Below, piece after piece: positions 2,941 through 64,000 of a stretch of DNA of 64,000 nt; position 1 is the stretch's first letter, and each line of letters opens with the position of its first letter. Source of the stretch: Psammoneis japonica (lineage: Eukaryota); assembly GCA_008632985.1 (NCBI GenBank), contig QPGO01000029.1, forward strand, positions 198,874-262,873, read 5' to 3'. Both the position numbers and the translations under genes were made by a program. The notes under the pieces were generated by a model, which saw only the letters and a program-made list of their open reading frames with translations, had not been told where the DNA came from and made no database searches.

Positions 2941-4604
<1,664 letters not shown>

Positions 4605-23067: not shown

Positions 23068-23081
23068 TGTTGTTGTTGTTG

Positions 23082-23121
<40 letters not shown>

Positions 23122-23222: not shown

Positions 23223-23232
23223 CAACCACAGT

Positions 23233-30081: not shown

Positions 30082-31084
30082 ATGGCCGCTTTTCAACCAG
30101 ACAAAAAGAGGATGTGCTGGCTTGCCCTCGGACTGCAGGACCTCATGAATTTGGGGCGTGGAATGATGAACAGAGGCGACAAGAAGTTTGGCGCCACAAT
30201 GACCGAGGACAGGCATTTTCGTGAGTTTTTTGGTTGCGGCCCAATCGTGGCTCTCACGCTGTGGAACCTCCTCGTCCACCACGATGTGCTGCCCCACGGA
30301 GCAAATGCCTGCCACATGCTGTGGGCACTTGATTTTTTGAAATCTGATGGCAAGGAAACTGACCTTGCCGGCAAAGCTGGGGGAGTCGACGAAAAAACTT
30401 TCCGAACGTGGAAGTGGCCAATGATTGAGGCCATTGCATCACTCGAGCCACACTTGGCAAGTGCCCAATTGTGACAATGTTTCCACATGTTTCAAAAAAT
30501 TGATTCTCACCCGCATCATTTGTGTTGTTGTTTGTTCTGCCCAGACAATTTGGGAGAATCGCCGCACTGGTGATGTCGGAAACGATTGTCTGGTTGCTGT
30601 GGATGGAACAGACTTTCGTGTCCCGAATCACGGCAGGAAGTTTTGCTCTCATAAATTCAACGACTGCGGACTTCGTTACAAAGTGGCAGTGTGCATTTTG
30701 ACCGGTCACATTGTGTGGATTAATGGGCCCTTTGTGCCCAGCGTGTACAACGACTCAGACATTTTTCGATCGGCATTGAAGACGGAACTGGACAAGGGGG
30801 AACGCGCAGAGGCTGACGATGGGTGCGTGGGTGAGTCCCCCATCTGTGTTAAGTGCCCCAGCAGTTTTGCAAACCCGAAGGAGATGGAAGAAATGCAGAG
30901 GCGTGCTCTCAATCGACAGGAGATGTGCAACGAACGCTTCAAAAATTGGACAATTCTGGAGAAAAGGTTTTGCCACAAACCGCTGTCGAAGCATGCCGAT
31001 GCATTTCGGGCTGCAGCTGTCACAACACAGCTTGCGATTCAAAATGGTGAACCGCTTTTTAATGTAGATTACAAGGATCTATAA
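30082..31084 (+). pseudogene. Harbinger DDE transposase, mutated; inferred intron 30457-30544
   Basis: VDGTDF, SHKF..GLRY.V, WINGPF, EADDGC (expected DDGY), RQEMCNERFKNW. Phase-0 intron GCAAGT..CAG. Confidence 0.85.
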
Positions 31085-34000
31085 TTGGACAGGACAATTT
31101 TCTTTAGAAACATTGTTTTTCTTTGTTCCAGCCCTGCGAACAGACAGTGAACCAAAGTTGGTGCCATCCATGGCAAATTGGCATCCACCAGTTGAAGGTG
31201 TCAAGCCTGGCACAGCACCAATGCTTGGCGACGGCGCAGGGACTCGACGGCTTTCACGACATGCCGCAGTTTCCGATTCTGAGAACATGACAGTGCGCAA
31301 GGCAACCTCAAAAGCAACAATGAGCATTTCTACAAAGGCCTGGGCACTGTTCTCTTTTTGTAAAACAGCACAGTTCGTAATCTCCAGGCTGAAATCGCAC
31401 CGGTGCTGCTGCTAGATGCAATGTGTTGTCACACCACTTCTGACATTTCTGCTGTAGATTTTTTGCGTTTTTCGCCTCAATCCGCGATTTCCCGCAGACC
31501 CACACAGAAGTGAGCGCAAGTGCACGCATGTGTGGATCAAATGTGCACATTCCCATGTTGACAACATGCTTTGGCTGCTGTGCACACACATGGAGTTGGC
31601 AAGGAATGGAAAGCAGATGCACCACAACAATTCTCAAATTTGGCATGAGCACCTTCACAAGCCTTTTCCAGAAATTTAAAATCTCATGCCGGGTGCAGTG
31701 GAAGCACCTGCTGCATGACAAAAGCACCATGGATTTCAACCTTGCAACAGCAGCAACAATGTTCTCAGTGTCACACAGTTTTGCTTCTTCGCTTTGCTGT
31801 CATTTGTGCAATGCAAGGTGTGCCAATCTGAGTCCCCTTAGAATGCCCCAACCACTGATGTGTGCCACATCAAAATCCCCCAAATTTGATCAGCATTTGC
31901 TTGGTCCCTGCAAAACAGCTGGCTGTGTGATGCCAAAGTGTCCAACACATCCAGAAAAACCCCGTCACGGGAGGCAAAATGTTGCAAATCCAGTGAAGAC
32001 AAGCCTTGGCCTCCCATTCTTGACAACTGACCTGGGAAGACTGAAACACATGGGCAGTGTGCCTCAGGCATCAGATCTTTGGCATCAGGACCAGCAATGC
32101 TGCGACAATGCCCAAATGTCAAAATCACAATTCACAGTCAAAAATTGTGCACACCCAGCTGCACCAAACTGTCTCACCTGCAGCTCCCTCAAATTGTTCA
32201 AAGTGTTTGTGCAATCAATTTGACCATCCCTGTCCAACAGCATCCTCTGTGTGACAATCAAATTGCCCACAATGCAGTGACAACAAATGAACAAAACAAA
32301 CCCCATGCAGCACACGAGTTGCCAGAAATGCAAGTTTTTCAAATCCCAAGCCACCCAAATCCTCTCAAATGCCAAACTTGCACTCTCTCTCAACCAGCTT
32401 TCCCCACTCCAAACACACAATGCATGCATCATGACACCTTCACTCTTCCTGCTGTTGCCCAGCTTCCTGACCTCATTTGCTTGTGCTGTGCCTCAAGAAC
32501 CACTCCACCATTGTCAGCTGTTTCTCCACCAACAACAGCCAGAGAAACAAGCCTGCACAGAATGCAAAGGGCATCACCCACAACAAACTCAAATGTCCAG
32601 TGCTCCCAGCTCCCATCTCTCCAACATTTTGTTCAATGTTCCAAAACACAGACAATCATTTGTTCACTTGAATTGCCACATCCAAACATCTGAAACATCA
32701 GCTGCATGCCCCACTCCATTCCTCTCAGCACAATCCAGAAAACACAGCAGCTCCCCTGCTGATGCAAGCAACACCACCCACACCCAGCCAGCGCGCCACC
32801 GTGCGTGGCACCATGTGGCAAAGAGAGCCAATGAAATGGGTCTTTTGAAGATGATGACAATGATGGTGTGGTGACACAACAACAAAACAGGACTTCAGAG
32901 GAGCAGCACAACATGGGTCAGTGTGCAGCAAGGGGGCGGGCGCAAAAGGCTGGGAGGCAGCAGCAAATGATGGCTGCAGCAGTGCAGACAGGGGCAAAAG
33001 AGCAACAATGACAATGAGTGCACAGCAAAGAAGTGGTGGTGATTGCAACAGCCAGGATGAAGACAGTGAGGTCAATGACAACAGGCAGAAAGAAAACACC
33101 GAGAGAGAGAAAAAAGAAACAAGTGAGAAACCCAGAGCCCACACAAACCATCATGAAACAGGCTGCTGCACCAGCAAACACAAAACTGAGCTGGCAACAT
33201 CATCCAGACAACTGACTCCAGGAAAACCCAAGCACACTTGAAAACAAAAACAAGCTCTCAGCTGGGCGCTGCAGATGCGTCATTGACTTTCAAACATGAG
33301 AGCAAAGATTGTGGTCAAAAACCAATGTGTGGTGTTTGTGGGTTTGACCCAGGGTTGATGACATGGTTGATCAAATTCTGTGGGGCTGAACATTTTTGCA
33401 TTTGGAGCAAGAAATCCTGCCACCATGGTGGAACAACCACATCTTCCCCCCCCCCTGGCTGTGTAGTGCGGCGGCGGCGCTGCTCTGGGTTGACATCTCT
33501 GGCTGCTGGCACTCCTCATCTTTGGCTCGAGACACTCACAGCAAATTGACCAGTTGGCTTGTGATGATGTGAGTTTGTTGGTGACATGCAAAATGACTTT
33601 TCCAGTTGGCACAGCTGCAAGACATTGAAGTCCAACGATTTTTTTGGGCATCGCAGCGGCTCAGAGTTGTCGTGTGTTGCCGCCGTGCCTTTGATGCCAA
33701 AAGCTGCCTCTGATGAGGACACATCAGGAATGAAACATCACAAAATTCTGGTTTGTTCTGCACAACAAAGTAACTGAAAAGTGATGTGCTCACTTGAGGA
33801 GCTGCACAAAATGTTGCTTTCAACTCTGGACAGCACCCGCGCACAGACATGGCCAAATCAATCGTGCCAAAAAAACGATGGCGCCGTCACCAGAGTTGAT
33901 TCGCGGGCGCTCGCGTGTGCCTGCTCACACGAAGGAAGTTCATCGAAAGTGAAGACGATTCCGCAACATTATTCATTTGCAAAGTTGTATAAAAATGAAT

Positions 34001-47481: not shown

Positions 47482-50400
47482 ATGAGTGATGCAGTCAACA
47501 AGAGCGTCGTGATCGATCTTTGTTCCCACGATGAAGAGTCGTCTTCCGACGAGAAACCCGCTGCCTCCAAGAAACACAAGTCGTCTGACGATTACCCATC
47601 CAGTGACGAAGAAATTACCTTCTTGCGGGAGGTCATAGTTATTTCATCGGATGATGAAGAAGATCCTTCGAAGAAAAAGGCTCCAAGTTATTCCGCTTCG
47701 CCTCGCTCCAATCTGAAAGTAAGGGGCAAACCCGCCGCCGCCAGCAACAACAAAAAGAAAGGTAAGCGTCAGGATAATGTCAAAGTGTTGTTTCTTTCAT
47801 CCAATGGCAATGAGCTTACGAAACAACCGCCACGTCTTCTGCTGTTTCAGCTGCTGACGCACTTGGAGCCATGACGAAACGCGCCGCCAACAAGACTGCG
47901 AATGCTGGCACCAAAAAGAATACGAGTGCGAAACGTCGTACTTCTGCAAAGAAAGACGTAACCAGTGATGTACTTGGAGTCATGACGAAACGCGCCGCCA
48001 ACAAGACTGCGAATGCTAGTACCCAAAACAATACGAATACGAAACGTCGTACTGCTGCAAAGAAAGACCAAGCCAGTGACGCACTTGGAGCCATGACGAA
48101 ACGCGCCGCCAACAAGAATGCGAATGCAGGTACCAAAAAGAATACGAATACGAAACGTCGTACTGCTGCAAAGAAAGACCAAGCCAAAAACATCAAGGAG
48201 GAGAAGGTCGATTGCACTTTGGTCAAGTTGGATCCTTCTCTTACCTGCAACAACCCCGCCAATCAAAGGCTTCATTATGATTTTGCACGACACATCAATG
48301 ATTGGATCGACACTATTGTTGAAAGCTCCATGTTTAATACCAGGCAGTACCGCGGCAAAGTGGACGTTATGAAGGGTTTTTCCCTATCTATTTCTGCTGT
48401 ATGTGAAATGCTTCATACCTTGCTGCTTTTGATCTTCTGATACTTACACGGCTTTCATTTTTTATGACTGTTCCTTACTCACAGACGTCTGCTACCCTTG
48501 ACACTGTCGGCAAAGTGAAGAAACACGTTAGTGGACTTGGCCCGAAGTACACGACCTTATTTGAGGTCTACTTTCACCACGGTCGTTTTATTGACACGTC
48601 ACTCAATATTAAGGACTAGTTGACGACAAGACAGAGCCACCACTGGAGCGCAATGATAGTAACAAGAAATGGAAGCCACGCCACATTTGTCGCGTCTTCG
48701 TTACAAATGTTGCAATGGCCTCTTTTGTACCAGCCATTGCGAGTCGTGGAGATGTCCATTCACGGATAGTGTTGTCCGCTGACACAACACACAAGACCTT
48801 TGTTTGCGCTGGCTTCCGTATCCTTATCGTTTTTGTGAATGACGCGACCCTGTCAGCAAAGATCCTTGGGTTCCTCGTCACATGTACGGAAGATGGCGGC
48901 GACTACTGCTTTGCAACACGTGCAGTCCGTAATGTGTCCGAATACATTTGTTCTCTGCCAAACAGTGAGCTACCTGGCAACATAACGGAACTGCCGTTCA
49001 ACCTTCCATCTCCTGTTCCACCGTGTACCATGGACAAGCCATTTTCGTTCGACGCTGACGAGGTAGCACTGGAGCAACGGTGCAACGACGACTTTGTCAC
49101 GATGCAGTCGCAACGATATCGATCCCGACTGTCGGAAGACACCCGACGCAAGATTACCGATTCAGCTTCCTATTTCCCTGAACTGATTCCACAACCTCAA
49201 GATGGATCTGTGCACTCGACATTTCGGTGGGACACCAAGGGACTCGTATTTACGTCCAACTCGGACGGTGACAAGGCAATACCGAATGGGCTAGGTGCTG
49301 CGGTACCTGCAATGATCTATAATCACAACGACTGCTGGGCTCATTTGCTCCGACATTTAAGAAAAGTCATGGACGGAACCGAGCATACGCAGTATTGTCC
49401 AATCACAATACAGGAACCCCGATTTCAACGCATCTCTGACAAAGAGAAACGGAAAGAAGAACTCAAGAAGGTTAGACAAAAATTGTACAACTACGTCAAG
49501 GATTCTCTGTACGAGGTAAAGTTCGTTACCTCTCGCTCTCTTTCGACTCTTCTGTTTGAGGAGCTCGTATCCGACCTGGAGCACGGAGATGTCCCTGGTG
49601 TGCCAGGATCATTTGCCAATTTCGCTGAGTATATCAAGACTACATTTGCCCGTTGCACGAATAATGGATCTCATGGCACCTGGCGTTATTCGGACTTACT
49701 TGATGTGACCAACAGTTGCTGCGACAGCCACAGCGGTGAGTTAGTCAATACAACAAACGACCCGACTGACCTCCACTTTGGTTTGCCTGACAACACCAAT
49801 TCTGATGAGGCTCACAACAAACTCCTAAAGGAAGGCATGGAACGTCGACGCCAAACCGTAGCAGGAAATTTGAGCTTCCTGATGGACTATGGAAAAGAAT
49901 ATACAGAAAAAGAATGCCTGATGCATGGTGTTAGTTATCTTCCAGTCCCATACGGTAGCGAAAGAATCCCGACATCAAGACATGCAGAGGACTTACGTGT
50001 TGGAATGCAATTTCTCGGACACGATCCCACTCCAGGCCTGCAGTACCTACGCCAAGGAGGGGTTGTTTTACAGGAGGGACGCGGCATGGACTCCAAAGTG
50101 TACATGCTCAGTGGCGACCATGAGTTACTGTATCTTCATCAGCAAACAACAGGTGAAGTTGACCCCCCCATTCCGCGTAAAGGGTGCGACACAAAGAAGG
50201 CGCAAGTGAAACTGTGGTACAAGAAATACAAGCAAGTGACCAAGGCAACTGAAGAACAACTTCGTGCAATGGCGACAAGAGGTGCAAAACAAATATACAT
50301 GGAGGCCAATGGCTTACGTACCCTTCCAGACCATGTTGACCCAAAGAAATGGAGGCTGGCATGGGGAAAAGCAGTGGACGAACTTCATGAATACCAACGA

Positions 50401-50706: not shown

Positions 50707-51912
50707 TCACTAGATAACTTTTGAAATCCCTGGTTTATGGAACGATGCATTCGGTGAGTTGAGATAATTAATTCAAAACAGACAGTGCATTCAATGACAA
50801 GTACTTACTGCCACAAGCCAAACAAAGGCATCCACAATGAATTGAGCCTGAGTTCGTCAATAACTAAAGATTTTACTCGACAATGTATCGCTCAAACCGA
50901 GCTGCAACAACTTCGATTGAAGCAATGTAGTATACCAGCAGAAATGTGGACCTTCAATCATACCGGTAGAGTACATCATTGTTGACTGCGCTACTCGTGA
51001 TGGTTGTCAACCATATAGCAACATTTCAAGCAATAATCATATACGTCGTATTATATATAACACATTCCCAACTTGTCGTGAGCCAAATCTTTGTCGTAAC
51101 GGCGTAGTACGGCGCCGTGAAAACACGCCATTGTGCTGCGTTCGTCTGAGTGCTCTGGTCGCGGCTGCGGTCGCTGCAGTCGCGGGAGTCAGCAATTTTT
51201 GTATATGATCTACATGTCATTTATGTTTTAATTATCTATCTGCACCGTTAAGAATGCCGTATGCACTGGTATTAATTCTACGTATGGAAGTGATACACAT
51301 GCTTTCAATTATGGATAGAAAATATCGCCAGTTAGGATAGAAAAAAGGTGGGATAGAAAAAAGGCAGGATAGGATAGAAAAATAAATAGGAAGGCCGCGC
51401 AGGAACGTGTACCACCAAGCATAATTGCTGCTGAGCTGAACTGAAGGAATTGCCTGCGATCTGTCAAACTGTCGTTGGATGGAATATGTGGTTCTCCGGG
51501 AACCCGTTTTACACCTTCATCAAAGGCATCATTCAGGTTGTTTCCTGAGGATGCCCAACGTGCTGTGTTGCACGAGTTTCTCACGCCATCGAACGAGGTT
51601 CGCAAGTCTTTGAAAACGCCCACGGGGCTTTGGGAAAAGCTTTCAACATTGCAGAAAATGCCAATAACCCAAATTAAGGTTGTTAAAGTAAAAGCAGCAG
51701 ACAAGTGCCGTAGAACACCCCCCACCGCCATTGTTCCTCCGATCGGGCGCAGGACAATTTGATTTTTGACAGAGCTGATCCTGACGTGCGCCACGCCGAC
51801 ACGTGGCACAATCTTTGCGTAGAATTCTACGACGAAAATTTTGAAATATCCTGAGAAAAAGATTCCGTCCACTGTTTTCAGTCACATCGACAACGACGAC
51901 ATCAATGCCTCT

Positions 51913-51987
51913 CAGACCCACGAAAAAATGATGTGTTGTCTCAATGACACCATGAATGAAAACATTTCTCATTTTTTCGTGGGTCTG
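51913..51987. repeat. Perfect 19-bp inverted repeat with 37-bp spacer
   Basis: CAGACCCACGAAAAAATGA (51913-51931) and its reverse complement (51969-51987). Confidence 0.9.
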
Positions 51988-52561
51988 GGATGTTCTCGCA
52001 TGAAATAGAAGTCGCATTCGTCGACTGATGACAACAGTGGTTTGGAGCAATGAAAAAGATTTGCGCGGTGAAGTGTGCACAGCACACATGGTTTGTGAAT
52101 TCAAAGTTCCAGATTCCAATTTTACGACGCACACCCAAGTGAATTTGACACGGACAAACAAGCTCACCGTTCGCCTGGTCAAACGCCAAAACTTTTGACG
52201 CAAGATAAGCCATGTGCACTGGCACTAAATTCACACACAAAAATTACGTAGAAATTTTCCTAAAAATCAGGGTTTGGGCCGATTTCGCTCGCCAGAAATG
52301 AGCGAACGTCGCCAAAGGCCACCTGTCCACTGCCCACCATGACGACTTTTCCCGTTGCTGCCCACCCACACCCTGAATTGTGCCATCAAGGGACGGTCAA
52401 TGTTTGCTGATGCATGCCCCCAGTGGTTCATTGCACTGAGATGGGCAAAGCAATTCGATGGCATTGCATCTCGAAGTGCCCGGGTCTTCGTCACTCGCGA
52501 GAATGCAACTTCGCACGTGCATCGGAGTTTGCAGATTGACCGATCCACGGAAACTTCCTCT

Positions 52562-52928
52562 TGCACTGTGCTCGAAGAACGAGTGCAAACGAAAGTAGAG
52601 TGGTGTGCGAAAAGTGGAAATTATAAGATCAAATTTTGCTCTGTGATTTTTGGTTTCTCCGAACGAGTTCTCAATGGCCCAAAGCTTCTGCACTGCTTCT
52701 GCAGACAAAAGGCCTTTCGGAGAATACATTCGTGACAACAGATTGTCCGGATGTGATTGCTGTTGACACGCAAGATGTCAACATCGTCAATCGATCGTAT
52801 TTGCAATTCTCGACATCCGATCAACTCTGTGTGATCGTTCTGTCCTTTGTGCGCATCCACGACTGTGGTGCGATTGACGTGTAAATGACATGCAATCATG
52901 GGCATGTGTGTGACAGTCGCACACTGCA
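52562..52928 (-). repeat. Gypsy 3' LTR
   Basis: Ungapped match to 56919-57285. Confidence 0.93.
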
Positions 52929-55900
52929 TTCGCCTCCCTAATTGCACATTGGAGTCATTTGTAAGTGGACCATTCGACGGACATCAACAGTGTCAACAAT
53001 GTCTCCACTTTCACTGCACTGTGCCATCAGCAATGACTGTTGTTGTTTTGTACAGGCAACACAGGGCCGTTCCAATTTCCGAATGTCTTTTGAGAGTGAC
53101 ATTGTTTGTTTCTCACTTAACATGCACACACACAGTGTTGCGTCGAGCATTCTCATTGACGTTCTTGTTGATGTGAACACAAGGACCAATTGTCCTGGAG
53201 CAAGTGTTTTCCTGATGTCGATTGTACATGGCATCGTGCCCAGCACTTAATGTGCGCTCTTAATTGTGGCGTTCACTTGCTTGCTTGTGGATTTCATGTA
53301 GTTTGGCGGGCTCACTTTATGTGCCACATTGCTCTGCTGCACTGCCACGTTTCACAAGCAACAACAAACGATGGTCAAAGATGTTGTGACCATTTCGTCT
53401 TGACAATCAATCCTGTGATGGTTGTGAATTCCATCATGGATTTTTTTTTGCACTTCAACCATCTATCAGTTGGATTTTAATTGTCATTTGGATGTTTCTT
53501 TCTGACATGCCGGTGTCATTTTGTCATTCCGAAGGCACTGGTTTCGTGCACTGAGTGGACAAATGTCCATTTTTCTTTTCTTTTTCTAGATCTTTGGCAC
53601 ATCTCGTGTGTCGACATGATGTGTGTTTTAATGTCTTGCCTCGTACATTGTACAACACAACCGTGCGGGTGTTGTGAGATTGTCTTTTGCCAGTGTGAAG
53701 TGGACACGTACAATGTGTGCCAATCTGTCACTGTTTTTTCCTAAATCGTCCTTTAAAAAGGCGATTTTATCCTTGTGACATGAGCATTTTTCGATCTCGC
53801 TCGCCTCCACGAAAAGTGTTCGTATGACATGTCGCGTCCGACAATTTGGAGGGAATGTCTGTGTCCCGTTTTAACGGCAGGACATTGTCGTAGGATTCAA
53901 TTTTCCACAGCAAGTCGGCTGATCGCGTCTGTCGCGACGATGTTCGCCTTGCCCTCGTTGTGTTCTAATTCGGGACTGAAGTTGTCAACGTGTGACTTTG
54001 TCCGTTGTGTCTTGTGATCCGTTCATGCACAAATCTGTTGGCCAAACAGCACATTTCGGAATTTTGTGAGTGTTTTCACCATGGACAGAAGTTCTTTTTT
54101 CTGTTGCAACACATGACATTGTAATCCGTGTGTGACAACAACACAGTTTTTGATTTGATGCGCTCCACATTTTCGGAGACTTTTCGTTCCGTACTTGCAC
54201 TTTTGCCGTTTGACCTTCATTGAGGTGAATTTGGCTAGCATTGCACAGGAGATCGTTGAGACTGCATGTCTCGACAATGGCAACGTATGACAACGAGATG
54301 TCGCAGTGTTCTTTGCGTTTTTCTCGTGTTGCGATTGGTTGAATCGCCTCCATTTTCTTTGCAATCGATTGCATGTCGTTGCGCATGGAAGTCTTGACAG
54401 TTCATTTCAAGTTAAACAGTGAAGGACTTTTGTTGTTGACCTTCTAAGCAACTGTTCCAGTCGTTTGAATGCCGCACCAAGCTGTTGCTTGTACAGGTGA
54501 CATTTTGAAGTTACTTTTGTCAGGCACAAACGATCACATGCAGTCGTTCTGACAACTTCAAACCTGTCATGAGTTCACTCAAGTGTTGCACAAAAATGTC
54601 TGGGGCTCCACAGATTCTCATTGGAAGTCCACAGCACTCATTTTCTCCCCACGGCATGATTTTCGTGTGAGCACGACGTGTGCTTTTTTCATTTGACATG
54701 GTGGCATTCCATGTTTGAATCAAACAGATTGCATGCATGAAACGTTCTTGCTTCAACGGCATTTCCTGAATGTTGGGTAAAGGATGCACCACCTGCACGA
54801 ACCTCATGCCAAGCTTCTGAGTGTCAGATGCGGTCGAACTCGACCTGTTTTCTTTGGACAACGAGTCTCAGAGTGACTCATTCAGAGCAACTTCATTCTT
54901 GAGACTTCAATCTTTCACAACAGGTCAAACTCCTTTTGATTGGACGCCTCCAAAGACTGTGACAGGAGAAGGTTCTCACGCGTCGTGGAATCGCGTCAGA
55001 TTTTCCACGATGAGATCCACTGATGCTTCCCATGCATTCGTCTGAGGAACTTTTCAAAACGATTTCAACCTCTTGAGAAGAAGATTGAGTTGGTTGTGTT
55101 CATTTGGGTCAGATGCATCGCCGTAGTTGTCACTTGATTAAGATCGATGGCGTGACAATGTGAGTCGAGGACCATTGGCTCCGTTATTGACTCTGTTCAC
55201 GGCGTCACATTTTTCAATGTGATCGGTTTTCAGCTTGAAAACATCGGCGTCGAAGAGTGTGTGAACATTCTTCATAAGGTGATTGCTTCTTCCCATTAGA
55301 TTTCTTCATTTGCGTAGTCCAATGTGACTTGCAGGACTGGACATTAAGTCACGTCCCATGATCGTGTCATTTGAACCTGAAGAAAATTTGGTGTTTTCAA
55401 CATGTGATGTTTGCACGTCAGCATGCCTTAAATTTCGCATGGTGAGAACTGAATTCGGTGTTTACTGTCAGTCGTAAAGAGCTCACCCTTGGTTTCCCAA
55501 GTTTTTGGTGGCGGATTCTTGTGTTCTCAACTTTCGCACGAATTTGCGCAAAATTGTGGTTGACGATGTTCCGTTGTCGATGGGAACACGTAGATGCTTT
55601 TTTTTTTTTTCCTTTCCCAAGGAAGCATTCATATAAATGATGACTCCTGGACTAGCATGAATTATTTCTGCCTTTTTTCTAGGCTTCCTAATGTCCAGTA
55701 AAGCACACAATTCGTGAACAGACCAAAATTATTCTTCGGATTCAGTCTGGATCATCCGATCAAATTGGTGTTTTTCTTCACTGAGGGCATCAGAATCTGA
55801 TTCTTTGCCCCCATGCTCTTTTTCTTTGTTCAAGGAACTCGCTTTGAGTGTTTTTTGAACCGCCTGATCAATCATGACGTTCATCTCTTTTTTTGCGAGC

Positions 55901-56918
55901 GGCATTTTCGTTGTCGCGACGCGACCGCGTGCGATTGCCATTTGAACGGCGCATTTTTGGGTCTCTTTCAGAGTCACCCTTGCACTCTTTTGCTAGTTCA
56001 TTTTTAGAATGGCTTCAATCCGTGATGTGGGTGTTCTTTTTTCAAAGACAAGACCTTGCATTCACTTTGGATTGTTCTGGTACCATGTGGGAGACCATTT
56101 TTGGAACCAAATTTGGAACCTTTTTTATTTTGGAACCAACTGCGCTGTCAGAGCCTGAGTTGATATGTTTTTTCGTCACGGACGTCATGAACGACCTTTA
56201 GATGACTCAAAACTTAATCAGCTCATCAAGGATGAGTTGCAACAGTTGATTGTTTTGGACAGTAGACTGATGCTGCCATCCTTGCGGTGCGAGTGATAGC
56301 TGATAAATCAGCGCTCGGTTTCCCGCTAGATTCGACTTAGAATCCATCTGAGGGTCGCATGGACTCTCATCATTGACCTCTTGGGTCTAACAGAGGCTTT
56401 CTTGCTGTCAAGCAGCTCTGGTTTCTTCAGGTCGTCTCGAAAATAATTTCCCTGATTCTGAAGTGCATTTCCTCGGAGGACATGAGTTGTGAGACGCTTG
56501 AGGTACTTTCCAACGATTCCCTCTTGCTCCTTGAACTCGAGGATCATCGATTCGGTCTCAAAAAACTCTCCAATGGTCTCTCCTTGCATGGTAGACGTAT
56601 TTCTCGGATCTGATCGACTCGGAATTTGCATTCTCTGCAACCATGACTTGGTGTAGATTTTTTGATAATGCGGTGTGCTTGAGAGCCCTTGATCCTTGGG
56701 TGCTTGGAATAGACCGCATTGGAGTGAATCCTCTTGTCTGGTAGACGAAAAACAGCGTTCCATCTTGAGGTGCTGCTCGGCTTGAGCTTCTTCCGCTCCG
56801 AAATCGATTCCAGCAGAACTGATGCGATTCGTTCCTGTTTATAGAAGAATTTGCAAAGGCACACTAGTTAAAATTTTCATTTTCCGTGCTTTTTACCTTC
56901 TGTGGTGTGTGTGCACAA

Positions 56919-57285
56919 TGCACTGTGCTCGAAGAACGAGTGTAAACGAAAGTAGAACAGTGTGCGAAAAGTGGAAATTATAAGATCAAATTTTGCTCTG
57001 TGATTTTTGGTTTCTCCGAACGAGTTCTCAATGGCCTAAAGCTTCTGTGCTGCTTCTACAGACAAAAGGCCTTTCGGAGAATATATTCGTGACAACAGAT
57101 TGTCCGGATACGATTGCCATTGACACGTGAGATGTCAACATCGTCAATCGATCGTATTTGCAATTCTCGACATCCGATCAACTCTGTGTGATCGTTCTGT
57201 CCTTTGTGCGCATCCACGACTGTGGTGCGATTGACATGTGAACAATGTACAATCACAAATGTGTGCACAACAGTCGCATGCTGCA
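56919..57285 (-). repeat. Gypsy 5' LTR
   Basis: Ungapped match to 52562-52928. Confidence 0.93.
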
Positions 57286-59079
57286 CTCTGCTGAGAACTG
57301 CTTGCAACCAGACAAGAATTTGGGTGTCTTTTGGTGATTCAGATTTGGGTGGAACCGTGCCGTGTCGGCGAAGCCCCGATCAGAAAGCATGCTGTGCCCC
57401 TTTGGACACTTTTTCAGTCGTGGTGCCCACAGCTCGACCAGAGCTTTCTCTGACACTCGTGCAAGGAATGGATCAGTGTGCTCAAAGGAAAGTCCCGCTG
57501 GTGTAGACCAAGAGATGCAACGGACGGCACTGGCAGGTGCTTTCTCTGAGCGACATGCTCGTGTAAAAAGGGTGCTCTTCCGGGGCGCGCACATTTTGAA
57601 GTCTTTTCCGTCAGGCACGGCGCCAGTGTTTTGCATGTTCTCATCCTCGCAAGCTTGAGGGCAAGTTGCATCAAGGAATTCAGCACTTGTGTCTAAAATT
57701 GAAAGATCCTTGCTGGCCTCTCCCCACTTCTTGATCCAACAATTGACATGCCGACCGACGGTTGTCCTGTCGAATTTTCCCCACATGTGGGCCAAGGACA
57801 TTGTGCTGTGCGGTCCATGAATGTGAAGCTTGGCAAGAAGACAGCCCTCAAATTTTGTTGTTCCATCTTTTCCATTTGGAGGAGCAGCTGGTGGCTTAAG
57901 ACCAAACAGGCCGTGGACGTAGAGCACACAGTCCTTCCAAGTTTTAAATCCGAGATGATGGCGCGCTGCGTCTGGATTTGCAGCATGCCATTTCTTGCTG
58001 GTGAGTGATCGACGAGAAAGACCAAGGTCGCAAAGAGCCAGCTTTTCATTTGCTTGTTGCATGAGGAGCTGCACTTCTCTCATCTTTTGTTTGATTGCTT
58101 TTTCTTGGTGCTTTCGTTTGTCAATGTGTTCCTTTTCCCTTCTCGTGCACTCAGCTTTTACGTCTTCTGTCTTCTTCTGCAGCTCACTCTCCTTGGCCTC
58201 CAGTTGTTGCTTGAGTGCCTCAAGAGTGTCTTGCTTTGCGGCAAGTTGGTTGGTGGCGGAGTTCACAGCTGCCCCCTTTCGAGTGATGGCGGGGGCATGG
58301 AACTGTGTTGCCGATTCGATGGCAACTTTCTGCTCCAATTCATCTGCCGAGCATTTAAACTGTGTGGCTGGGTGGTTTGGAAGTGGAAAGCATGTTCCGT
58401 CATTTCGAGGCAGCTTGTCGGCCTCGGCACAAGCCAGGCCAATGTTGTTGAGCTTGAAACCGACAGACCTTGGAATTGATTCTGGTGCTAGCTTCCTCTT
58501 TCCGTCGGCTGACACTTTGAATGGATTGTGTGCATCCTCTGGAAAATGAAGAGATGCAAACACATGCTTTGTGTTGGATGAACAGGATGGATCCTTGACC
58601 CTCTCCTTTGCTTTTGGACCAAGTTGCTGAAGAAACCTGGCTCGTCTAGCTGCCTTTGTGTCACGGCCGAGCTTCACAGCCTTGGGAACATGGCCAGTCT
58701 TGAGTTCCTCTTTTGGTTCTGCTGGAAGTGTGAAGCAATTGTGGCGTTCAGGACAAACTGTCAGCAGTCTCGCCATTTGAGTGTCACAGTCTGGGTTGCC
58801 ACAAACACATTTCGTTTGAGATTTTGCGTGTCGCTTTGGTGTGGTCCACGTTTTGTGTTTCGCCGATGACTTTCGCACAGGCGACTTTGCATCGCTGAGG
58901 GTGGCGTCTGGTTCAATCTCCGTCACGGCGCGCTTGGATTGAGAGCGCGTTGTCGCGGGCATGGTGACAAAGCTTCACAGATGCAGCAGCAACCAATTGT
59001 GGCTTTGAACGACCAGATGCTGGACTGCACACATTGACAGAGAGTTGTGTCAGGCATGCTGCCAGTTGGAAAGCGAGCG

Positions 59080-59306
59080 TTGCATTAATCGCACTGCCAC
59101 GAACGCAAGTGTTGCATCATTCGCACTGCCACGAACGCAAGCGTTGCATCATGCACACTGCCAGGAATGCGAGCGTTGCATCAGGGCCACTGCAAGAAAC
59201 TCGAGCGTTGCAATGGACTTTCAGGAGGTGTCCTTGCTGTGCATCCACTGCCAGAAACTCGAGCATTGCAATGGACTTTTAGGAGGTGTCCTTGCTGTGC
59301 ATCATC
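59080..59306. repeat. Tandem repeats (about 32-bp units, then two of about 58 bp) between the divergent transposon genes
   Basis: Recurrent cactgcca.gaacgcaag.gttgcatca and gcaatggacttt.aggaggtgtccttgctgtgcatc. Confidence 0.85.
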
Positions 59307-59405
59307 CATTGAGAAAATCATTGGATGGCACTTGTCGCCAAAAAGATTCGGTGCTCTCTTTCCGCGATCTTGCGTTCTCACTCATGCATCACACCGCACC
59401 ACACG

Positions 59406-61919
59406 ATGGGAGCAAACAAGCTTTCAGCTCTTCTGCGGTCGGCTCATGATGCCAGCGACAAATTTGCAGACAATGCCACCATCAAAGGAAAGGTGTTCGG
59501 ATTCGATCTAAGCGTCCTTCTCCATCAAGCCATCAATGGCATCGAAGGAGCAAGCGACTTTCACATGCAGCCGCCAATGCCTGTCAGACAGGTTGACGTG
59601 TTGTGCCGAAAACTCATTCGACTTGCGCGAGAGGCAGAGGTGACGTTGAAAGTGGCAGCAGACGGAGCGCATCATCCCGGAAAAGCTGGCGAAAATGAAA
59701 GCCGTCGAGCTGAGCGACAAGATGCATTGGAGAAGTTACTCGACTGCTTCGCTCTTCCAAACCCAGAACAGCACCACGCAGAAGTCGAGAAAGTGATGAA
59801 AAAGGCGGCTTTTGTTGGAGAAGATGCGATTGCTCAAGCTGTCAAAATGTTCCAGGAGGAAGGCATCGACGTGTTTGGTGCCCCGTTCGAAGCCGATTTT
59901 CAACTGGTGTTTTGGGAGTTAAAGGGCGTGACAAATGGCGCCATCAGCATCGACTCTGACATGTTTGCCATGGGGTCAATGCTGTTTGTTGACTTGCTCA
60001 AGCTTCGAACACAGGATGGAAAATGCAAAGCACTTGTCCGAGATGATGCAATGAAGACGGATCGATTTGCCGAAGGGAGCAGCGGGTGGTCACATGACGA
60101 CTTCCTCACATGTTGCATTCTCAACGGATGCGACTTTATCCCGAAGCTGTGCAATCTTCAGAAGAAAGAGATGCGATCATTCATGAGCAAGTGGGTTGCA
60201 GCTGATGCAACAACAAAGGACAGCATGTTGATGGACCTTGGCAATGAGCGCCACTGGCCGCCAGGAAAGAAAAAAGGTGGAAAGCTGGCGACGGACTGCC
60301 TGGCATGATTCAAGACAAGCATGGCACTTTTCATGCACTCGCCCGTCATTGACATTAAAGAAGACGGCGCCCATGTTCTTGTGCCAATGCGACCTCTCCC
60401 AAATGACGAGGCATCATGGAATTCACTCCTTGGACACAATCCATTGCACTGGTTCTCTTTGAACAAAATTCCTTTCAAAGATGCATGCGAGCTCAATGTG
60501 TGGGCTCGCACTGGGAAGCCACTTGAAAGTCTTCCTCTCCCACGAGACCCCGACGACCCAGAGAGGGAGATCCCATTTGGATCCATTGTCGACTTTGATG
60601 TCATGCCTCTCCATCACTGCCGGCATTCCTCTCTCTTGTTGTGGCTGTGCTGTCATGGCATCCCGCATCCAAAGGGTGCCAGCATTGCTGAGCTCGTAAA
60701 ACAAGTGCAACTCGCCGTAGAGGTTGGACGACCACTGGACTGTGACCGAATCGCAGTGGAGCCTGCCAACGCGGCACAGTCATGCACATCATGGGAAAAG
60801 CTGTTTGTTGAGACAGAGCTTGTCTGGAATGATTCTCTTCAGGATGCCCTTCAATTTATGCGCAGTTCTTCGATCCCAGAGGTCAACATGGAACACATCA
60901 ATGACACATTTGGAAACGGAAAGAATGGCACAAGAGAGTGTGCGTGGATGAGATGCACCAGCGGACACCTTGACATTTCTGCGCTCCGGACTGCAATCAC
61001 ACAGCTGCAAAACATAAAAGGCAAGGTGAATGTGGTTGATTTCAAAGTCACTCCGAGCATGAAGAGCGAGACATGCGGAGTTTACCTTGCGTTCGCCGAG
61101 AACGGCACATTTCTACACGACGCCTCAAAGTGCAACTGCCCCAATGGATGGTTGTTCTGCAGCCACATGCTGGCAGCATTTCTTCTTTTATTTTTGATTC
61201 AACTGATGTCGGAATGGACTCCTGAGGATCTGTCGCACTTTCTGCCAGAGCCAATCAAATCATTGCAATCTGCACCACTTTCTGCAGAATTCGTGTTCGT
61301 CGAGATGAAAGCCAAGGATAAAAACGAGAGCAACAACAAGAGCAAGAATTCAGAAAGTAAAGAAACAGATGAGGAGCGAGAAGAAAAGAAAAGGGCCGCT
61401 TGCACAAAGCGAGTGGGGAAAGTGCTCGCGAAAGAAGTGAAGAACTACACCCGAGAGACGAATGAACGAGACACGGATGAACGGGACGAGCGCCTTGCGA
61501 CAGAGGACGATGTGAAGAAGGGAAAGAAGGATGGTGACATTGAGAGCATTGACCCATGTGCAAGGCTCCGCAAACACTTGGGAGACAGCAATGCTGCAGC
61601 CAGCATTGCCGCCGGGAAAACTCCGAAGGGGAAGGTGTCAGGGAGCGCCGTCCAGGAGCACAACAAGAAACTCGTCTATGGAGAAGAAAGCGTTGAACGG
61701 AAAATTGAAAAGATCAGATGACACAATCGACTTCATAACATGATGAAGGACAAACACATTTCAAACGACAACTCAATCTTTCATCACTTTGAGCACTTCG
61801 AGAAGCAGCATCAAGAGGATGCAGCGCGGCCAAAACAACAACTTGGAGGTGATGACATGTCTCTGCCCGAAGAATGCGACAAAGAGTTCATGGACGAATG
61901 TTTTAAGGAGGGTGGTGGT
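59406..61919 (+). pseudogene. XPG/FEN1/EXO1-family 5' nuclease fused to a SWIM-type zinc finger; two in-frame TGA stops; truncated by the Copia insertion
   Basis: MGANKL, FGFDLSVLLH, ADG..HPGK..EN..RR, APFEADFQL, SIDSDM, ILNGCDF, CNCPNGWLFCSH. The three ORF pieces are in one frame. Confidence 0.82.
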
Positions 61920-62258
61920 TGTTAGATTCACAGTCTTTAACACACAGACACTTGCATGTGTGGGGGTGCTTTGTTGCAGCGGATGAAGCTCATGGTTCGT
62001 TGCTGCGTTTTGATGCTTGTGTTGGTCGAGACACAGTCCTGCAGCTGAGCAGGATGGACAAGACCTCGGAGGTTGGCAGCAATGTGAATGGCGACAGAGG
62101 CAAACAGACGCTTGTTGAAAGTCGTTGTCTAGAAAATTATGATGAATGTCGTTGCTTCTGTTTGAATCGATTTTGTGATGAGCTAATTGTTTCGAAGAGA
62201 AAATCTGAGTCTGGGTTGCAGTCGTGAGATGCAACCAGAATGACGTTGAGTCGTGACT
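61920..62258 (-). repeat. Probable 3' LTR of the Copia element
   Basis: Follows the purine tract GAGAGGGAG on the minus strand and ends ...CTAACA exactly where the nuclease ORF breaks. Partner LTR is outside the window. Confidence 0.7.
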
Positions 62259-64000
62259 CTCCCTCTCAACCGAGAGAGCTTGCCAGCCCACAAGAGCCTT
62301 TCTAGCCGTGCGGAACGCATCGGTCCGTAGTCCCTTCGTGAACTGATCGGCTAGTTGCTCTAGAGTGCTGACAGGTTGGATGTCGATCTCCAATTGTTCG
62401 ACTTTAGTCCTAAACCAGTGGCAAGGGATGCCGATGTGTTTGGTTCGCGGAGACAACTTGGGCATGTGTGCGAACTTGAGGCACGCGGAGTTATCTTCGT
62501 ACACAACGGACGCAGGTGGGACATTCTGCTCTACAGGCGAGTCATCGGTGCCTTGGGTTGCGAGCTCAAAAGCCTTGGAGTGAGTCGTGACAGGGTTTTG
62601 GCGGTCAGACTTTCCGAATGCGTGGTGGTTGAGCTCCTTGAGAACTTCACGAATGGGGATGAGATCGCGCACAGCTTGAGAAAGTGCGACACACTCCGCT
62701 TCCACAGTCGACAATGCTGCAAGAGTCTGCAGCTTGGACACCCAGATGAGCGGGCAGCCGGCGCAGTAGACAAGGTGTCCAGTCCTGGACTTGACAGAAA
62801 CTGGGTCTTGACCATCTTCCACACCAAATGACCCCGCGAAGTCAGAATCGACGCAACAATCAACTCGATGATCTTGCACAGGCTTGAGAATGAGACCTTC
62901 AGCAGCAGTTGCTTTGAGGCATCGGAGCATCCACTTCACTGCAGCAGCGTGGGACGCTCGGGGCGCAAACGAGAATCGAGCCACTTGATGTGTGGCATGT
63001 GCAATGTCTGGCCGGCTGTTCGCTGCCAAGTGCATCAACATTCCAACAACTGAGCGACAATCGCAGGGTTCATCAAAAGGCAGGCCGTCCGTGTCGGCAC
63101 CAACAGCCGCAGGCAGAGCTGGAGCAGATGCTCCATTGCAATCCTGCATCTGTGCGGTGCGCAGGACCTTGTCAATTAGACCGGGTTGAGTGAGTGGAAA
63201 TCGACCCTCGGAGAGCTTTTCGATCTTGACACCGAGAAAGTCACCGACTTCTCCTTCGTCTCTAAGTTCAAACACGTGGCGATGTTCGTCATCGGAGACT
63301 CCTAACTTGCGAATTTCGGCTTCTAGAGCTTCAGCTGAAGCTCCAGCAAAAACGGTGTCGTCGACGTGCACCACACACATCATGCCCTCTTTGAAATACA
63401 AACAGGGATCTGTGGCTGAAGGCACCCATCCGCGCTCGGTTAAACCAGCTCGTAACTTCTCGTAGAAGCCCTTGGGAGACTGTTTTAGGCCGCACAGTCC
63501 TTTCAAAAGTTTGAGAACCACACTGAGTCCCGACCTTGGCGCAAATCCCTTCGGCGGTGTTGTGCAAACTTCCTCGGCGACATCAGCTTGGCAAAAGGCT
63601 GTGGCACAGTCCACCTGTCGTGTGGTCCATCCCTCCTTTAATGCCGCAGTGAGCATGAGTCGGACACTGGACCATTGCACAACCGGCGCGCAGGTTTCGA
63701 AGTGGTCGACTCCTTCTTTCTGCAAATCACCGCGGACGCAGTGTCGGGCCTCATGCTTGAGAGGGGTTCCATCTGGGAGTCTCTTGAGCTTCAGCGCCCA
63801 TGTGCCTGGAAGTGCATTCATGTGCGGCTGACGCTCGACTGCTTTCCAGGCTCGACAATGTGTGAGTGCGTTGACTTCAATTTTCATCGCCTCAATCCAT
63901 TCGTCAGCATCCGGACCTTTCAGAGCATTGTGTGACGAAGGCATGTCAGGGTCCTTGGTTTTCTTGCTAGCTGCGCAGGCTCGTGGATCGCCGACATTGA
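61920..64000 (-). mobile_element. Ty1/Copia (CoDi-like) retrotransposon, RT and RNase H region, mutated, running off the window
   Basis: VRGDLQKEGVD, GLKQSP, DPCLY, HVDD (for YVDD), SRPDIA, DSDFAG, SRTG, STVEAE, EDNSAC, RTKHI, ADQFTK. Confidence 0.95.

Follow-up and report, generated by a model that had tools for sequence, protein, structure and literature searches.

Introduction

The closest described system is that of the chlorarachniophyte Bigelowiella natans, in whose mutation-accumulation lines integrated giant-virus and virophage DNA undergoes TpA-restricted hypermutation (Mettrop et al., bioRxiv 10.64898/2026.01.13.699255). In the two viral regions, A>G and T>C made up 230 of 231 mutations, and every one of these 230 occurred at TpA. 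The process acts de novo in chromosomal DNA and is episodic, with a rate per site and generation of 1e-7 to 1e-6; reverse-transcriptase and DDE domains are over-represented among the TpA-poor CDS of this alga. Diatoms, LTRs and retrotransposons are not mentioned in the part of the preprint available to us (bioRxiv 10.64898/2026.01.13.699255). A second group of known systems edits retroelements before integration, as described for APOBEC3 (G>A) and ADAR (A>G), e.g. PMC4866542; ADAR is noted to prefer a 5' U (bioRxiv 10.64898/2026.01.13.699255).

Here we describe a locus in a diatom, Psammoneis japonica, for which a reading of twin LTRs had suggested a comparable process. Protein homology likewise assigns the window to a diatom. 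We report the spectrum of changes, their sequence context, their confinement to transposon-derived blocks and their direction in an adjacent copia element. All positions refer to the window, a stretch of 64,000 nucleotides analysed at its full length.

Structure of the element

A repeat finder applied to the 64-kb window returned a direct repeat at 52562-52861 and 56919-57218, which an alignment (MAFFT and ungapped overlay) extended to 52562-52928 and 56919-57285 without indels. Both 367-bp LTRs begin with TGCA and end with TGCA, i.e. they have TG..CA ends, and the terminal inverted repeat matches in 6 of 7 positions. The pair is bounded by a target-site duplication, CTCT, at 52558-52561 and identically at 57286-57289 (both read directly). 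A 4-bp match has a chance of 1 in 256, and the matching duplication on both sides points to one insertion. A polypurine-tract-like run at 52929-52939 (10 of 11 purines on the minus strand) lies beside the left LTR and thereby places the element on the minus strand: the left LTR is the 3' LTR, with the run directly upstream of it, and the right LTR is the 5' LTR.

The internal region (52929-56918, minus strand) is degenerate, with stops in every minus-strand frame and a TpA obs/exp of 0.12-0.37. Over the whole 4,724-bp element each minus-strand frame contains 45-59 stops; since A:T>G:C changes make no stop codons, other decay or a non-coding progenitor is also needed. The sole match among the 63 ORF pieces of the element is a sub-threshold RT_RNaseH_2 domain at 54026-54406 on the minus strand (E = 0.012, 16.1 bits against a cut-off of 29.8), and neither integrase nor RVT_1 was found among these pieces. 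No primer-binding site was recognised on reading the sequence beside 56918. We classify the locus as a degenerate minus-strand LTR retrotransposon, possibly Ty3/gypsy-like.

The family to which the element belongs is highly abundant, with a summed contig depth of 7,500-47,800 on the element versus 37 on its flanks (4,940 contigs). Its variation comprises 684 variant places, namely 579 transitions and 105 transversions, plus indels. We note that the sequencing run behind these figures may be the sample behind the assembly of the window, and hence not independent evidence, and that the per-site family figures below stem from 40 of 697 variant rows.

Differences between the two LTRs

The computed alignment reproduces the hand alignment of the original prediction: 367 bp without indels and 34 mismatches, all of which are transitions. 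The probability of 34 transitions and no transversion is 1e-6 under an assumed transition share of two thirds, and 0.0035 at the share of the family (579 of 684 variant places). The classes of differences likewise have the same counts on recount. They consist of 11 reciprocal CA/TG dinucleotides (22 nt), 7 sites with TA versus CA or TG (3 CA/TA and 4 TA/TG), 2 sites with CG versus TG or CA (52754 and 52879), and 3 A/G differences with A as 5' neighbour in the right LTR (52600, 52901 and 52902). When 34 random transitions were placed on the LTR in 20,000 simulations, the number of differing bases within TA/CA, TA/TG or CA/TG pairs had a mean of 8.0 and a maximum of 18, against 29 of 34 observed; reciprocal pairs averaged 0.42 and never exceeded 4, against the 11 counted in the LTR pair. 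Only five TpA are common to both LTRs. Most CpGs had been said to be kept in both copies, and this holds: each LTR has 21, 20 of them identical.

Reciprocal sites would also result if methylated CpG had lost its amino group on one strand in the left LTR and on the other strand in the right. Diatoms methylate the CpGs of transposons. CpG decay is active on the element and nearby. The 26 best-supported changes private to this copy include 9 polarised G:C>A:T changes, 7 of them at CpG, and 12 A:T>G:C changes, 6 of them at TpA; CpG obs/exp is 0.02-0.15 across 21-27 kb; and one other family copy, among the variant rows listed, has CG at the reciprocal site 56958/56959. In the LTR pair, however, 20 of the 22 CpG-bearing sites are intact in both copies and two are CG/X. 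The resulting per-copy decay of about 0.05 predicts, by simple arithmetic, about 0.03 reciprocal pairs versus the 11 seen. Moreover, the LTRs have a CpG obs/exp of 1.1-1.2 and the element interior one of 0.79-1.04, the family has little C at 57048/57049 (see below), and the neighbouring copia ORF has no unambiguous G:C>A:T change. CpG decay driven by 5mC was rejected as the source of the LTR differences, as the pair has neither a depletion of CpG nor a dominance of CG/X sites, and we consider this origin of the reciprocal sites very improbable. Among the unambiguous pairs, the per-copy change of TA is about 10 times that of CG (arithmetic on the LTR counts), so that an ancestral TA at a reciprocal site is about 50 times likelier than an ancestral CG.

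The original prediction had also proposed polarising the differences with the family consensus. Family data exist for at least 4 of the 11 reciprocal sites among the variant rows listed, and they are mixed. At 57048/57049 the family has T at 93%, A at 57% and C at only 7%, such that TA makes up at least 50% and is the majority; at 57129, A accounts for 77%; and one other family copy has TA at two reciprocal sites (again among the variant rows listed). These positions agree with an ancestral TpA, whereas 57118, where the family has C at 86% and not T, and the single CG copy at 56958/56959 do not. The family A at 52902 makes up 100% of the depth, hence the G of the left LTR is derived.

Under a TA-ancestor model, a hand count from the alignment listing yields 8 T>C and 9 A>G changes in the left LTR (17 TA-type changes) and 6 of each kind in the right LTR (12 TA-type changes), with both kinds intermixed inside each LTR. 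According to the established scheme of retroviral replication both LTRs are copied from one template, and editing before integration predicts only A>G or only T>C in each copy. The occurrence of both kinds in each LTR therefore means that one-strand editing of RNA or cDNA cannot be the source. Pre-integration editing of the ADAR/APOBEC type was rejected on these grounds, and because the LTRs differ at 34 sites.

The pair might also have acquired its differences by gene conversion or recombination with separately mutated family copies. In favour of this, the family is very abundant and the differences are patchy: 19 of the 34 fall within the 45 bp of 52879-52923 (right-LTR counterpart 57236-57280), and none within the 106 bp of 52773-52878. 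An imported tract, however, should bring some of the transversions (105 of 684 variant places) and indels of the family, and the pair has none of either (p = 0.0035 for the transversions); the matching 4-bp target duplication speaks for a single insertion. That the LTRs did not diverge in place, be it by such exchange or by editing before integration, thus appears highly unlikely. Divergence between the twin LTRs of a single insertion indicates indirectly that mutation took place in situ. The patch is also distinguished by its density of changes, with 16 of 18 TA-type copy-sites changed versus 13 of 28 in the remaining LTR (Fisher p = 0.005). A single rate misfits the pair: its 5 TA/TA, 7 TA/X and 11 reciprocal sites need two per-site probabilities of being hit, about 0.9 within the 45-bp patch and about 0.4 in the rest of the LTR.

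Composition of the window

In a 1-kb profile of this one 64-kb window, gene blocks have a TpA obs/exp of 0.41-0.79, versus 0.00-0.38 in the transposon-derived blocks (20.2-34 kb and 51.5-64 kb), where CA+TG reaches up to 2.13. Near-erasure of TpA together with inflated CA+TG is restricted to the transposon-derived blocks within the window, and 14 of the 64 1-kb intervals reach the extreme thresholds of the B. natans paper (TpA <= 0.43 and CA+TG >= 1.52). The block that harbours the element (51500-64000) is depleted in TpA (0.06-0.38), enriched in CA/TG (CA+TG 1.19-1.6) and retains CpG (0.6-1.2, all obs/exp). The flanks of the nested element are more depleted in TpA than the element itself, with 0.06 at 52250-52561 and 0.07-0.16 at 57286-59000.

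The second block (20250-34000) is more extreme. TpA is almost absent throughout, and CpG is nearly absent at 20.5-27 kb and low at 31-33.75 kb. The 6 kb of 21000-27000 contain 15 TA and 30 CG (obs/exp 0.04 and 0.08), with a CA+TG of 1.93. The only Pfam domain found in this block is the relic of a gag zinc knuckle (zf-CCHC, PF00098) at 23998-24240 on the minus strand (E = 1.9e-5, 24.9 bits versus a cut-off of 20.8). A second direct-repeat pair, 23233-23509 and 25311-25553, aligns with 188 matches, 47 transitions, 7 transversions and 36 gap columns, and has 16 reciprocal CA/TG pairs (score 281 versus a shuffle maximum of 53). As a control, a 111-bp tandem repeat in a gene block (47855-48186) has ordinary spectra, with transitions/transversions of 8/5, 5/5 and 5/4. 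In this one 64-kb window, hypermutation is confined to mobile DNA and the remainder is ordinary.

A side observation concerns the search for repeats: recoding the DNA into purines and pyrimidines recovers repeats that are missed by ordinary searches.

Direction of change in a neighbouring copia ORF

A copia-type pol ORF at 61773-63998 on the minus strand (RVT_2, E = 5.6e-33) is open over 741 codons and was compared with 69 homologues as an outgroup, using 308 columns with at least 70% consensus. None of the 14 conserved Tyr is kept in the ORF (10 are Cys, 2 His, 1 Trp and 1 Val), and at 12 of these columns the change is TAY>TGY/CAY; all 69 homologues retain 11-14 of the 14. Tyr makes up 0.5% of the residues of the ORF, and the motif YVDD reads HVDD. 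Conserved Cys are kept in 6 of 6 cases and His in 5 of 6, and none became Tyr. Inferred single-step A:T>G:C changes number 26, of which 23 are at TpA: they consist of 22 A>G (5' neighbour T in 19, A in 2 and C in 1) and 4 T>C, all with a 3' A. The copia alignment contains no unambiguous C>T or G>A, a single R>W column being either C>T or A>T; the 12 transversions may be lineage differences.

Further long ORFs with few Tyr exist in the window: counting the copia one, their lengths are 741, 573, 470 and 452 codons, and Tyr accounts for 0.2-0.6% of the residues. A:T>G:C at TpA never gives rise to a stop codon, hence ORFs stay open over long stretches. Fungal RIP was rejected as a candidate, given the depletion of TpA (0.00-0.38), the absence of Cys or His changed to Tyr, and the lack of unambiguous C>T or G>A in the copia alignment.

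Chemistry and proposed process

The same post-integration process at TpA could in principle rest on chemistry at thymine, with an enzymatically modified T (e.g. hydroxylated to 5-hydroxymethyluracil) mispairing with G and giving T>C. Thymine hydroxylation with a preference for TpA exists in some protists, and since the TpA step is palindromic, a T>C on either strand looks the same in these data as an A>G on the opposite one. The three LTR changes outside TpA, however, are A>G runs directly 3' of TA, on the same strand and in the same copy (52600; 52901-52902), and the non-TpA transitions of the copia ORF are A>G after A or C. Such changes in both LTRs and copia are simpler to read as an attack on A, and we regard the thymine route as unlikely.

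The original prediction had seen in the AA-context changes a hint of the WA motif of Pol eta. Pol eta-like error-prone repair synthesis at WA motifs in transposon chromatin would fit the strong excess of TA over AA (W being T or A), with 29 TA-type and 3 AA-type changes in the LTRs and 23 TpA and 2 ApA in copia. Yet A>T and A>C form a substantial part of Pol eta errors at WA, and there is no transversion among the 34 LTR differences; the B. natans mutations, too, are transitions in 230 of 231 cases. The per-site probabilities of 0.4-0.9 look saturating, unlike scattered repair errors, and the three AA-context changes directly adjoin TA-type changes in the same copy. The hint is therefore not favoured, and repair synthesis of this kind seems quite unlikely.

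The probable explanation is a post-integration process that converts TpA to TpG or CpA in transposon-derived DNA, separately in each LTR, an assessment that holds at the level of the process and leaves the enzyme step apart. A single integrated copy of an abundant, degenerate LTR retrotransposon in the diatom nuclear genome would have been subject to a process at the level of DNA, limited to transposon-derived chromatin, which on either strand replaces the A of 5'-TA by G (an A:T>G:C transition). Changes on opposite strands of the two LTRs would then give CA versus TG, a change in one LTR would give TA versus CA or TG, and same-strand changes in both would be invisible; slower methyl-CpG-type decay on the same DNA would account for the two CG sites. 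Independent conversion of TpA in each LTR, in genomic DNA and after integration, was the core of the original prediction. It is supported by the two types of change in each LTR, the compositional mosaic, the direction in copia, the higher per-copy change of TA than of CG and the precedent of B. natans. We infer that the same direction holds at each LTR site; the ancestral state at the individual reciprocal sites is established in part.

With regard to chemistry, adenine may be deaminated to hypoxanthine (read as G) by a deaminase with a preference for T, and to a slight degree for A, on the 5' side; enzymatic adenine deamination is a serious candidate, if short of a probable one. More tentatively, the process could be a dedicated diatom genome defence that finds transposon chromatin and deaminates adenine at 5'-TA in double-stranded or transiently opened DNA, by a natural DNA adenine deaminase shared with chlorarachniophytes, thus old in the SAR supergroup, and acting beside cytosine methylation. 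If so, proteins would be killed via loss of Tyr and other TA-containing codons, never via stops, and dead transposons would persist as long open 'orphan' ORFs.

Such a genome defence has so far been reported only in one unrelated alga, in one 2026 preprint, and the present locus would extend it to diatoms. As diatoms are ecologically dominant and have genetic tools, the responsible enzyme would become findable. To our knowledge, none of the natural enzymes characterised so far replaces A by G at a defined dinucleotide of DNA, and one that does would be of interest to the base-editing field. There are also practical consequences. Since 29 to 32 of the 34 differences here would stem from hypermutation and about 2 from background, dating by LTR divergence is invalid in such genomes; gene callers will report long, stop-free hypermutated ORFs as orphan proteins; and twin LTRs offer a control-free readout of the process in any assembled genome.

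Comparison with known systems

RIP changes CpA to TpA by C>T, so that TpA accumulates and stop codons appear. The process described here resembles it as a transition-only hypermutation at the DNA level that affects both copies of a repeat, wrecks transposons and involves a CpA/TpA context, but its direction is opposite: TpA is destroyed, and His or Cys never become Tyr. Deamination of 5mC at CpG likewise gives TpG/CpA, and reciprocal CA/TG in duplicated DNA, and appears to be active here too, as seen in the 7 private CpG changes and the CpG-free block at 21-27 kb. It fails, however, for the LTR pair with its 20 of 22 intact CpG sites, and for the loss of Tyr codons. The hypermutation of retroelements by APOBEC3 and ADAR is similarly clustered, transition-only and context-dependent; these enzymes edit a single strand, RNA or cDNA, with one kind of change per copy and LTRs alike, whereas here the kinds are mixed and the LTRs unlike. 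Pol eta in somatic hypermutation likewise targets A after T or A, but the transversions expected of it are absent among the 34 LTR differences.

The similarity is closest to B. natans. In both cases changes are almost only A>G or T>C at TpA, leading to TpG or CpA according to strand, and foreign DNA is affected, with a deficit of TpA and an excess of CpA+TpG, while the rest is ordinary. The restriction to TpA is near-strict here (23 of the 26 copia changes and 29 of the 34 LTR differences), with a minority at ApA (2 in copia, 3 in the LTRs) and CpA (1 in copia). The restriction to A:T>G:C is as in B. natans, with 26 such changes and no unambiguous G:C>A:T in copia, and 34 of 34 transitions in the LTR pair, where the direction is inferred. 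The two cases differ in host (by homology a diatom, i.e. a stramenopile, versus a rhizarian chlorarachniophyte), in target (high-copy LTR retrotransposons versus a single-copy viral insert) and in evidence (historical, from twin LTRs, outgroups and composition, versus de novo mutations). Unlike in B. natans, there is a minor ApA component and CpG is lost alongside in some blocks, and the depletion is far deeper, with TpA obs/exp down to 0.03 versus 0.45 in the B. natans NCLDV region. By analogy with B. natans, we take the process in this diatom to be of the same kind.

Divergence of the LTR pair

A repeat finder reports a single long direct repeat in the region (52562-52861 versus 56919-57218), which extends without gaps to 52562-52928 for the left LTR and 56919-57285 for the right LTR, both with MAFFT and by plain overlay. 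Over these 367 bases the two LTRs differ at 34 positions, comprising 34 transitions and no transversion. The differences consist of 11 reciprocal dinucleotides (CA in one LTR, TG in the other), three CA/TA and four TA/TG sites, two sites with CG in one copy only (52754 and 52879), as well as three A/G differences following an A (52600, 52901 and 52902). The computed realignment thereby reproduces all mismatch counts and classes of the original prediction. Identical in both LTRs are 20 CpG and only 5 TpA.

When 34 transitions are placed at random (20,000 simulations), at most 18 differing bases are of the TA/CA/TG type and at most 4 reciprocal pairs arise, versus 29 and 11 observed, respectively. 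As a control, a gene-block tandem array of three 111-bp units (47855-48186) exhibits ordinary substitution spectra, with transition/transversion counts of 8/5, 5/5 and 5/4. The LTR differences are patchy: 19 of the 34 are located within 52879-52923 and none within 52773-52878. TA-type sites, counted per copy, are changed in 16 of 18 cases in this 45-bp patch versus 13 of 28 elsewhere (Fisher p = 0.005). The patch was formerly very TA-dense, if all its variable sites once were TA; easy melting or a processive enzyme may explain its origin.

Direction and timing of the changes

With TA as the ancestral state and changes read on the plus strand, 17 TA-type changes fall in the left LTR (8 T>C and 9 A>G) and 12 in the right LTR (6 T>C and 6 A>G), according to hand counts, with both kinds interspersed in either copy. 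Since each LTR carries both kinds of change and the LTRs are unlike, the changes point to double-stranded chromosomal DNA after integration, as had been claimed from the initial inspection. Editing of RNA or of one-strand cDNA would give a single kind of change per copy and LTRs that are alike, neither of which is observed. An assembly artefact is rejected as well, as the left junction is matched difference-free by a read-derived contig, possibly from the assembly's own sample.

Among unambiguous pairs, TA is changed in about 0.41 of copies (5 TA/TA, 7 TA/X) and CG in about 0.05 (20 CG/CG, 2 CG/X). A reciprocal site is therefore approximately 50 times likelier to derive from a TA than from a CG ancestor, and CpG decay is rejected as the main cause of the LTR differences, the CpG of the LTRs being intact. 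We note that a single TA rate fits poorly, predicting about 1.2 reciprocal pairs versus the 11 seen.

The three A/G differences after an A each adjoin, on its 3' side, a TA-type change that affects the same strand of the same copy. In the other copies of the element, its family, position 52902 is A in all covering depth, hence these differences represent A>G changes. The original prediction had taken them as a hint at the WA motif of Pol eta. The spectrum expected of Pol eta includes transversions, whereas the LTR pair contains none, and a Pol eta-like polymerase is not favoured as the source.

Polarisation by the copia ORF

The neighbouring copia-type pol ORF (RVT_2; 61773-63998, minus strand) is open over 741 codons and encodes 0.5% Tyr, 4.9% His and 4.0% Cys, versus 1.2-3.7% Tyr in host ORFs. 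Its first 560 residues were aligned with 69 homologous copia polyproteins, corresponding to the 72 best hits except three without an alignment of more than 500 residues, and 308 columns with at least 70% agreement among the homologues were scored. Most residue types are retained in 79-100% of their columns; retention is lower for Ile (8/18), Thr (10/17) and Met (5/7), chiefly from A>G changes. None of the 14 conserved Tyr is retained: the replacing residue is Cys in ten columns, His in two, and Trp and Val in one each, and the catalytic YVDD reads HVDD. Each of the 69 homologues has 11-14 of these 14 Tyr. Cys is retained in six of six and His in five of six columns, none having turned to Tyr.

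The single-step changes comprise 22 A>G, of which 19 follow a T, two an A and one a C on the 5' side, four T>C, all followed by A, and 12 transversions; 18 further changes are multi-step and two are ambiguous. Neither C>T nor G>A occurs unambiguously among the single-step changes, one R>W column being either C>T or A>T. The polarisation therefore provides direct evidence, independent of a majority rule within the family, that the process acting on the block is TpA to TpG and CpA.

Tyr is replaced by Cys or Trp in 11 cases versus His in two (binomial p = 0.02). The skew hints at a bias towards A>G on the coding strand, although CA versus TG counts across the block are without such asymmetry, and composition reveals no clear strand asymmetry of CA versus TG in any block. 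The relatives of the copia ORF include Fragilaria crotonensis; in viral contigs, 57 pattern matches yielded no confirmed relative.

The LTR element and its family

Both LTRs have TG and CA as their first and last dinucleotides, the tetranucleotide CTCT borders the pair on either side, and 52929-52939, which abuts the left LTR, has 10 purines among 11 bases on the minus strand. The element region has a negative AT skew, as expected of an element encoded on an A-rich minus strand. Taken together, these features identify a minus-strand LTR retrotransposon that derives from a single insertion. The 4,724-bp element contains 45-59 stops in each minus-strand frame, and the 63 stop-free pieces of its interior give one sub-threshold Pfam match (RT_RNaseH_2, E = 0.012, 54026-54406, minus strand). 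On this single domain match below threshold, the element is no more than a putative member of the Ty3/gypsy superfamily.

A blastn search with both LTRs and the interior found no further copies in the 64-kb window. The family is nevertheless abundant: 4,940 contigs from a public run, which may derive from the sample used for the assembly, match the element, and summed contig depth is 7,500-47,800 on the element versus 37 on both flanks, values that do not represent copy number. Variation within the family is transition-rich (579 transition versus 105 transversion places), and only 19 indel places separate the element copy from other family copies. Given the abundant family, the stops in every frame and the few indels, the progenitor may already have been non-coding, that is, non-autonomous. 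A degenerate 22-mer from the LTR retrieved one locus in metagenomes (L001), a chance match over 23 bases only.

Family data at individual sites are given here for the 40 of 697 variant rows listed. Among these, positions 57048/57049 have T in 93%, A in 57% and C in only 7%, hence TA is present in at least half of the family. The reciprocal sites 57129 and 56959 have A in 77% and 87%, respectively; at 57118, C reaches 86%, a majority that lends T no support. One other family copy (a contig of run X2 with 14 differences) has CA, TA, TA and CG at these four reciprocal sites. The core interpretation is supported for process and direction and partly for individual sites, where the family data cover four of the 11 reciprocal sites and are mixed.

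Among the rows listed, at least 92% of family depth differs from the element copy at 26 sites, namely 12 with A:T>G:C in the element copy (six at TpA), nine with G:C>A:T (seven at CpG) and five transversions. Hypermutable sites are under-represented among these rows, since most family copies have themselves mutated there. The rows nevertheless show CpG-type decay to be at work as well, and this decay explains the two CG sites of the LTR pair.

Compositional mosaic of the window

A 1-kb composition profile divides the window into gene blocks (1-20 kb and 34-51.5 kb) with TpA observed/expected of 0.41-0.79, CA+TG of 0.99-1.31 and CpG of about 1, and two TpA-depleted blocks. The highest TpA value of the gene blocks, 0.99, is found in the 500-bp stretch 51000-51500. 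The block at 20.25-34 kb has TpA of 0.00-0.24, CA+TG of 1.28-2.13 and, over 21-27 kb, CpG of 0.02-0.15, with 15 TA and 30 CG in the 6 kb of 21000-27000. The block at 51.5-64 kb has TpA of 0.06-0.38, CA+TG of 1.19-1.6 and CpG of 0.6-1.2. A process that generates TpA (RIP-like, CpA>TpA) is excluded by this composition, as TpA is depleted. By the thresholds that a mutation-accumulation study on Bigelowiella natans sets for the extreme 5% (bioRxiv 10.64898/2026.01.13.699255), 14 of the 64 1-kb windows are extreme.

Both depleted blocks are transposon-derived: the first contains a gag zinc knuckle (23998-24240), the second the LTR element and the copia ORF. The flanks of the LTR element are TpA-poorer (0.06; 0.07-0.16) than the element itself (0.12-0.38), which marks the element as the younger insertion, nested within DNA rewritten earlier. 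Within 20250-34000, CpG is near-absent at 20.5-27 kb and low at 31-33.75 kb, the sequence being complex rather than microsatellite; the sub-block at 28-31 kb has kept its CpG (0.82) and may represent a younger nested insertion.

For 44 and 103 ORFs taken from the depleted blocks, the Pfam cut-offs are exceeded by zf-CCHC and XPG_I only. Three long ORFs without Pfam domain (57253-58974, minus strand, 573 codons; 60309-61721, plus strand, 470 codons; 27949-29307, minus strand, 452 codons) share with the copia ORF a Tyr content of only 0.2-0.6%. A:T>G:C changes abolish TAA and TAG stops and can make no new ones, so that long ORFs persist or arise in rewritten DNA, and gene callers would list them as orphan genes. 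The 470-codon ORF lies downstream of an ORF encoding an XPG_I nuclease domain (E = 1.9e-10), from which a single in-frame stop separates it (together 59313-61721, plus strand); the DNA of both is poor in TpA, and their Tyr content is 0.0-0.6%. The XPG_I ORF has no homologue among longer proteins at E <= 1e-5; it may derive from a transposon, a virus or a host gene in decay. Further tandem arrays are found in the TpA-poor block (59068-59303, 32-bp and 58-bp units) and in the most depleted block (23068-23222, 52 units of TGT).

The genes of the window are eukaryotic and nearly intron-free, and encode two phosphoglucose isomerases (PGI), VPS8, an ABC transporter, and fumarate-lyase-type and HMG-box proteins. 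The best named relatives of the PGI ORF (72-79% identity) are from the diatoms Eucampia, Dactyliosolen, Proboscia, Stephanopyxis, Seminavis, Grammatophora and Cylindrotheca, with no near-identical match among the database hits. On this homology and that of the copia ORF, we regard the host as a diatom with proteins that the database does not include, distinct from Bigelowiella. The PGI genes (2695-4131, plus strand; 14129-15946, minus strand) are in opposite orientation and 10 kb apart, the first spanning just profile positions 1-330 of 486. With 247 transitions and 348 transversions over 1,279 aligned bases, the paralogues are too diverged for use as a spectrum control.

A second repeat pair

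The window was recoded into purines and pyrimidines and realigned in a transition-tolerant manner. After recoding, the LTR pair is identical over 370 positions (52562-52931 and 56919-57288), and additional transition-only matches are exposed in 23-26 kb. A direct repeat, 23233-23509 versus 25311-25553, comprises 188 matches, 47 transitions, 7 transversions and 36 gap columns, and scores 281 versus at most 53 in shuffled sequence. It contains 16 reciprocal CA/TG pairs, so that the sole other repeat pair available shows the signature of the LTR pair. The second pair is much older than the LTR pair. Repeats masked by transition-only hypermutation can be detected simply by such recoding.

Mechanism and comparison with known systems

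The pattern is probably the result of a TpA-directed process that acts on DNA after integration and would target transposons. Its chemical step might be deamination of the adenine in 5'-TA steps of either strand, an assignment to an adenine deaminase that we regard as tentative and somewhat doubtful; methyl-CpG decay would be a slower companion.

In the B. natans lines, 231 of 302 mutations are located within an integrated giant virus and virophage, and 230 of these 231 are A>G or T>C, each of the 230 on TpA. Rates exceed the background about 1000-fold, in some lines only, and reverse-transcriptase and DDE domains are over-represented among TpA-poor coding sequences; the study proposes an ADAT2-like DNA adenine deaminase (bioRxiv 10.64898/2026.01.13.699255). 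The accessible text of this preprint, the only literature found on TpA-directed hypermutation, with none found for diatoms, mentions neither diatoms, LTRs nor retrotransposons. By term search, dinucleotides, deamination and RIP are likewise absent from two papers on diatom transposons (10.1101/2025.10.24.684338; PMC2806351).

The case described here differs from RIP, which makes TpA and hence runs in the opposite direction, from CpG decay, as CpG is intact in the LTRs, and from pre-integration editing of the APOBEC or ADAR type, as both strands are changed and the LTRs are unlike. It probably belongs to the very recently described kind found in B. natans, whose defining signature it matches, although host lineage and depth of TpA depletion differ, the targets here are high-copy LTR retrotransposons, and the loss of TpA co-occurs with a loss of CpG.
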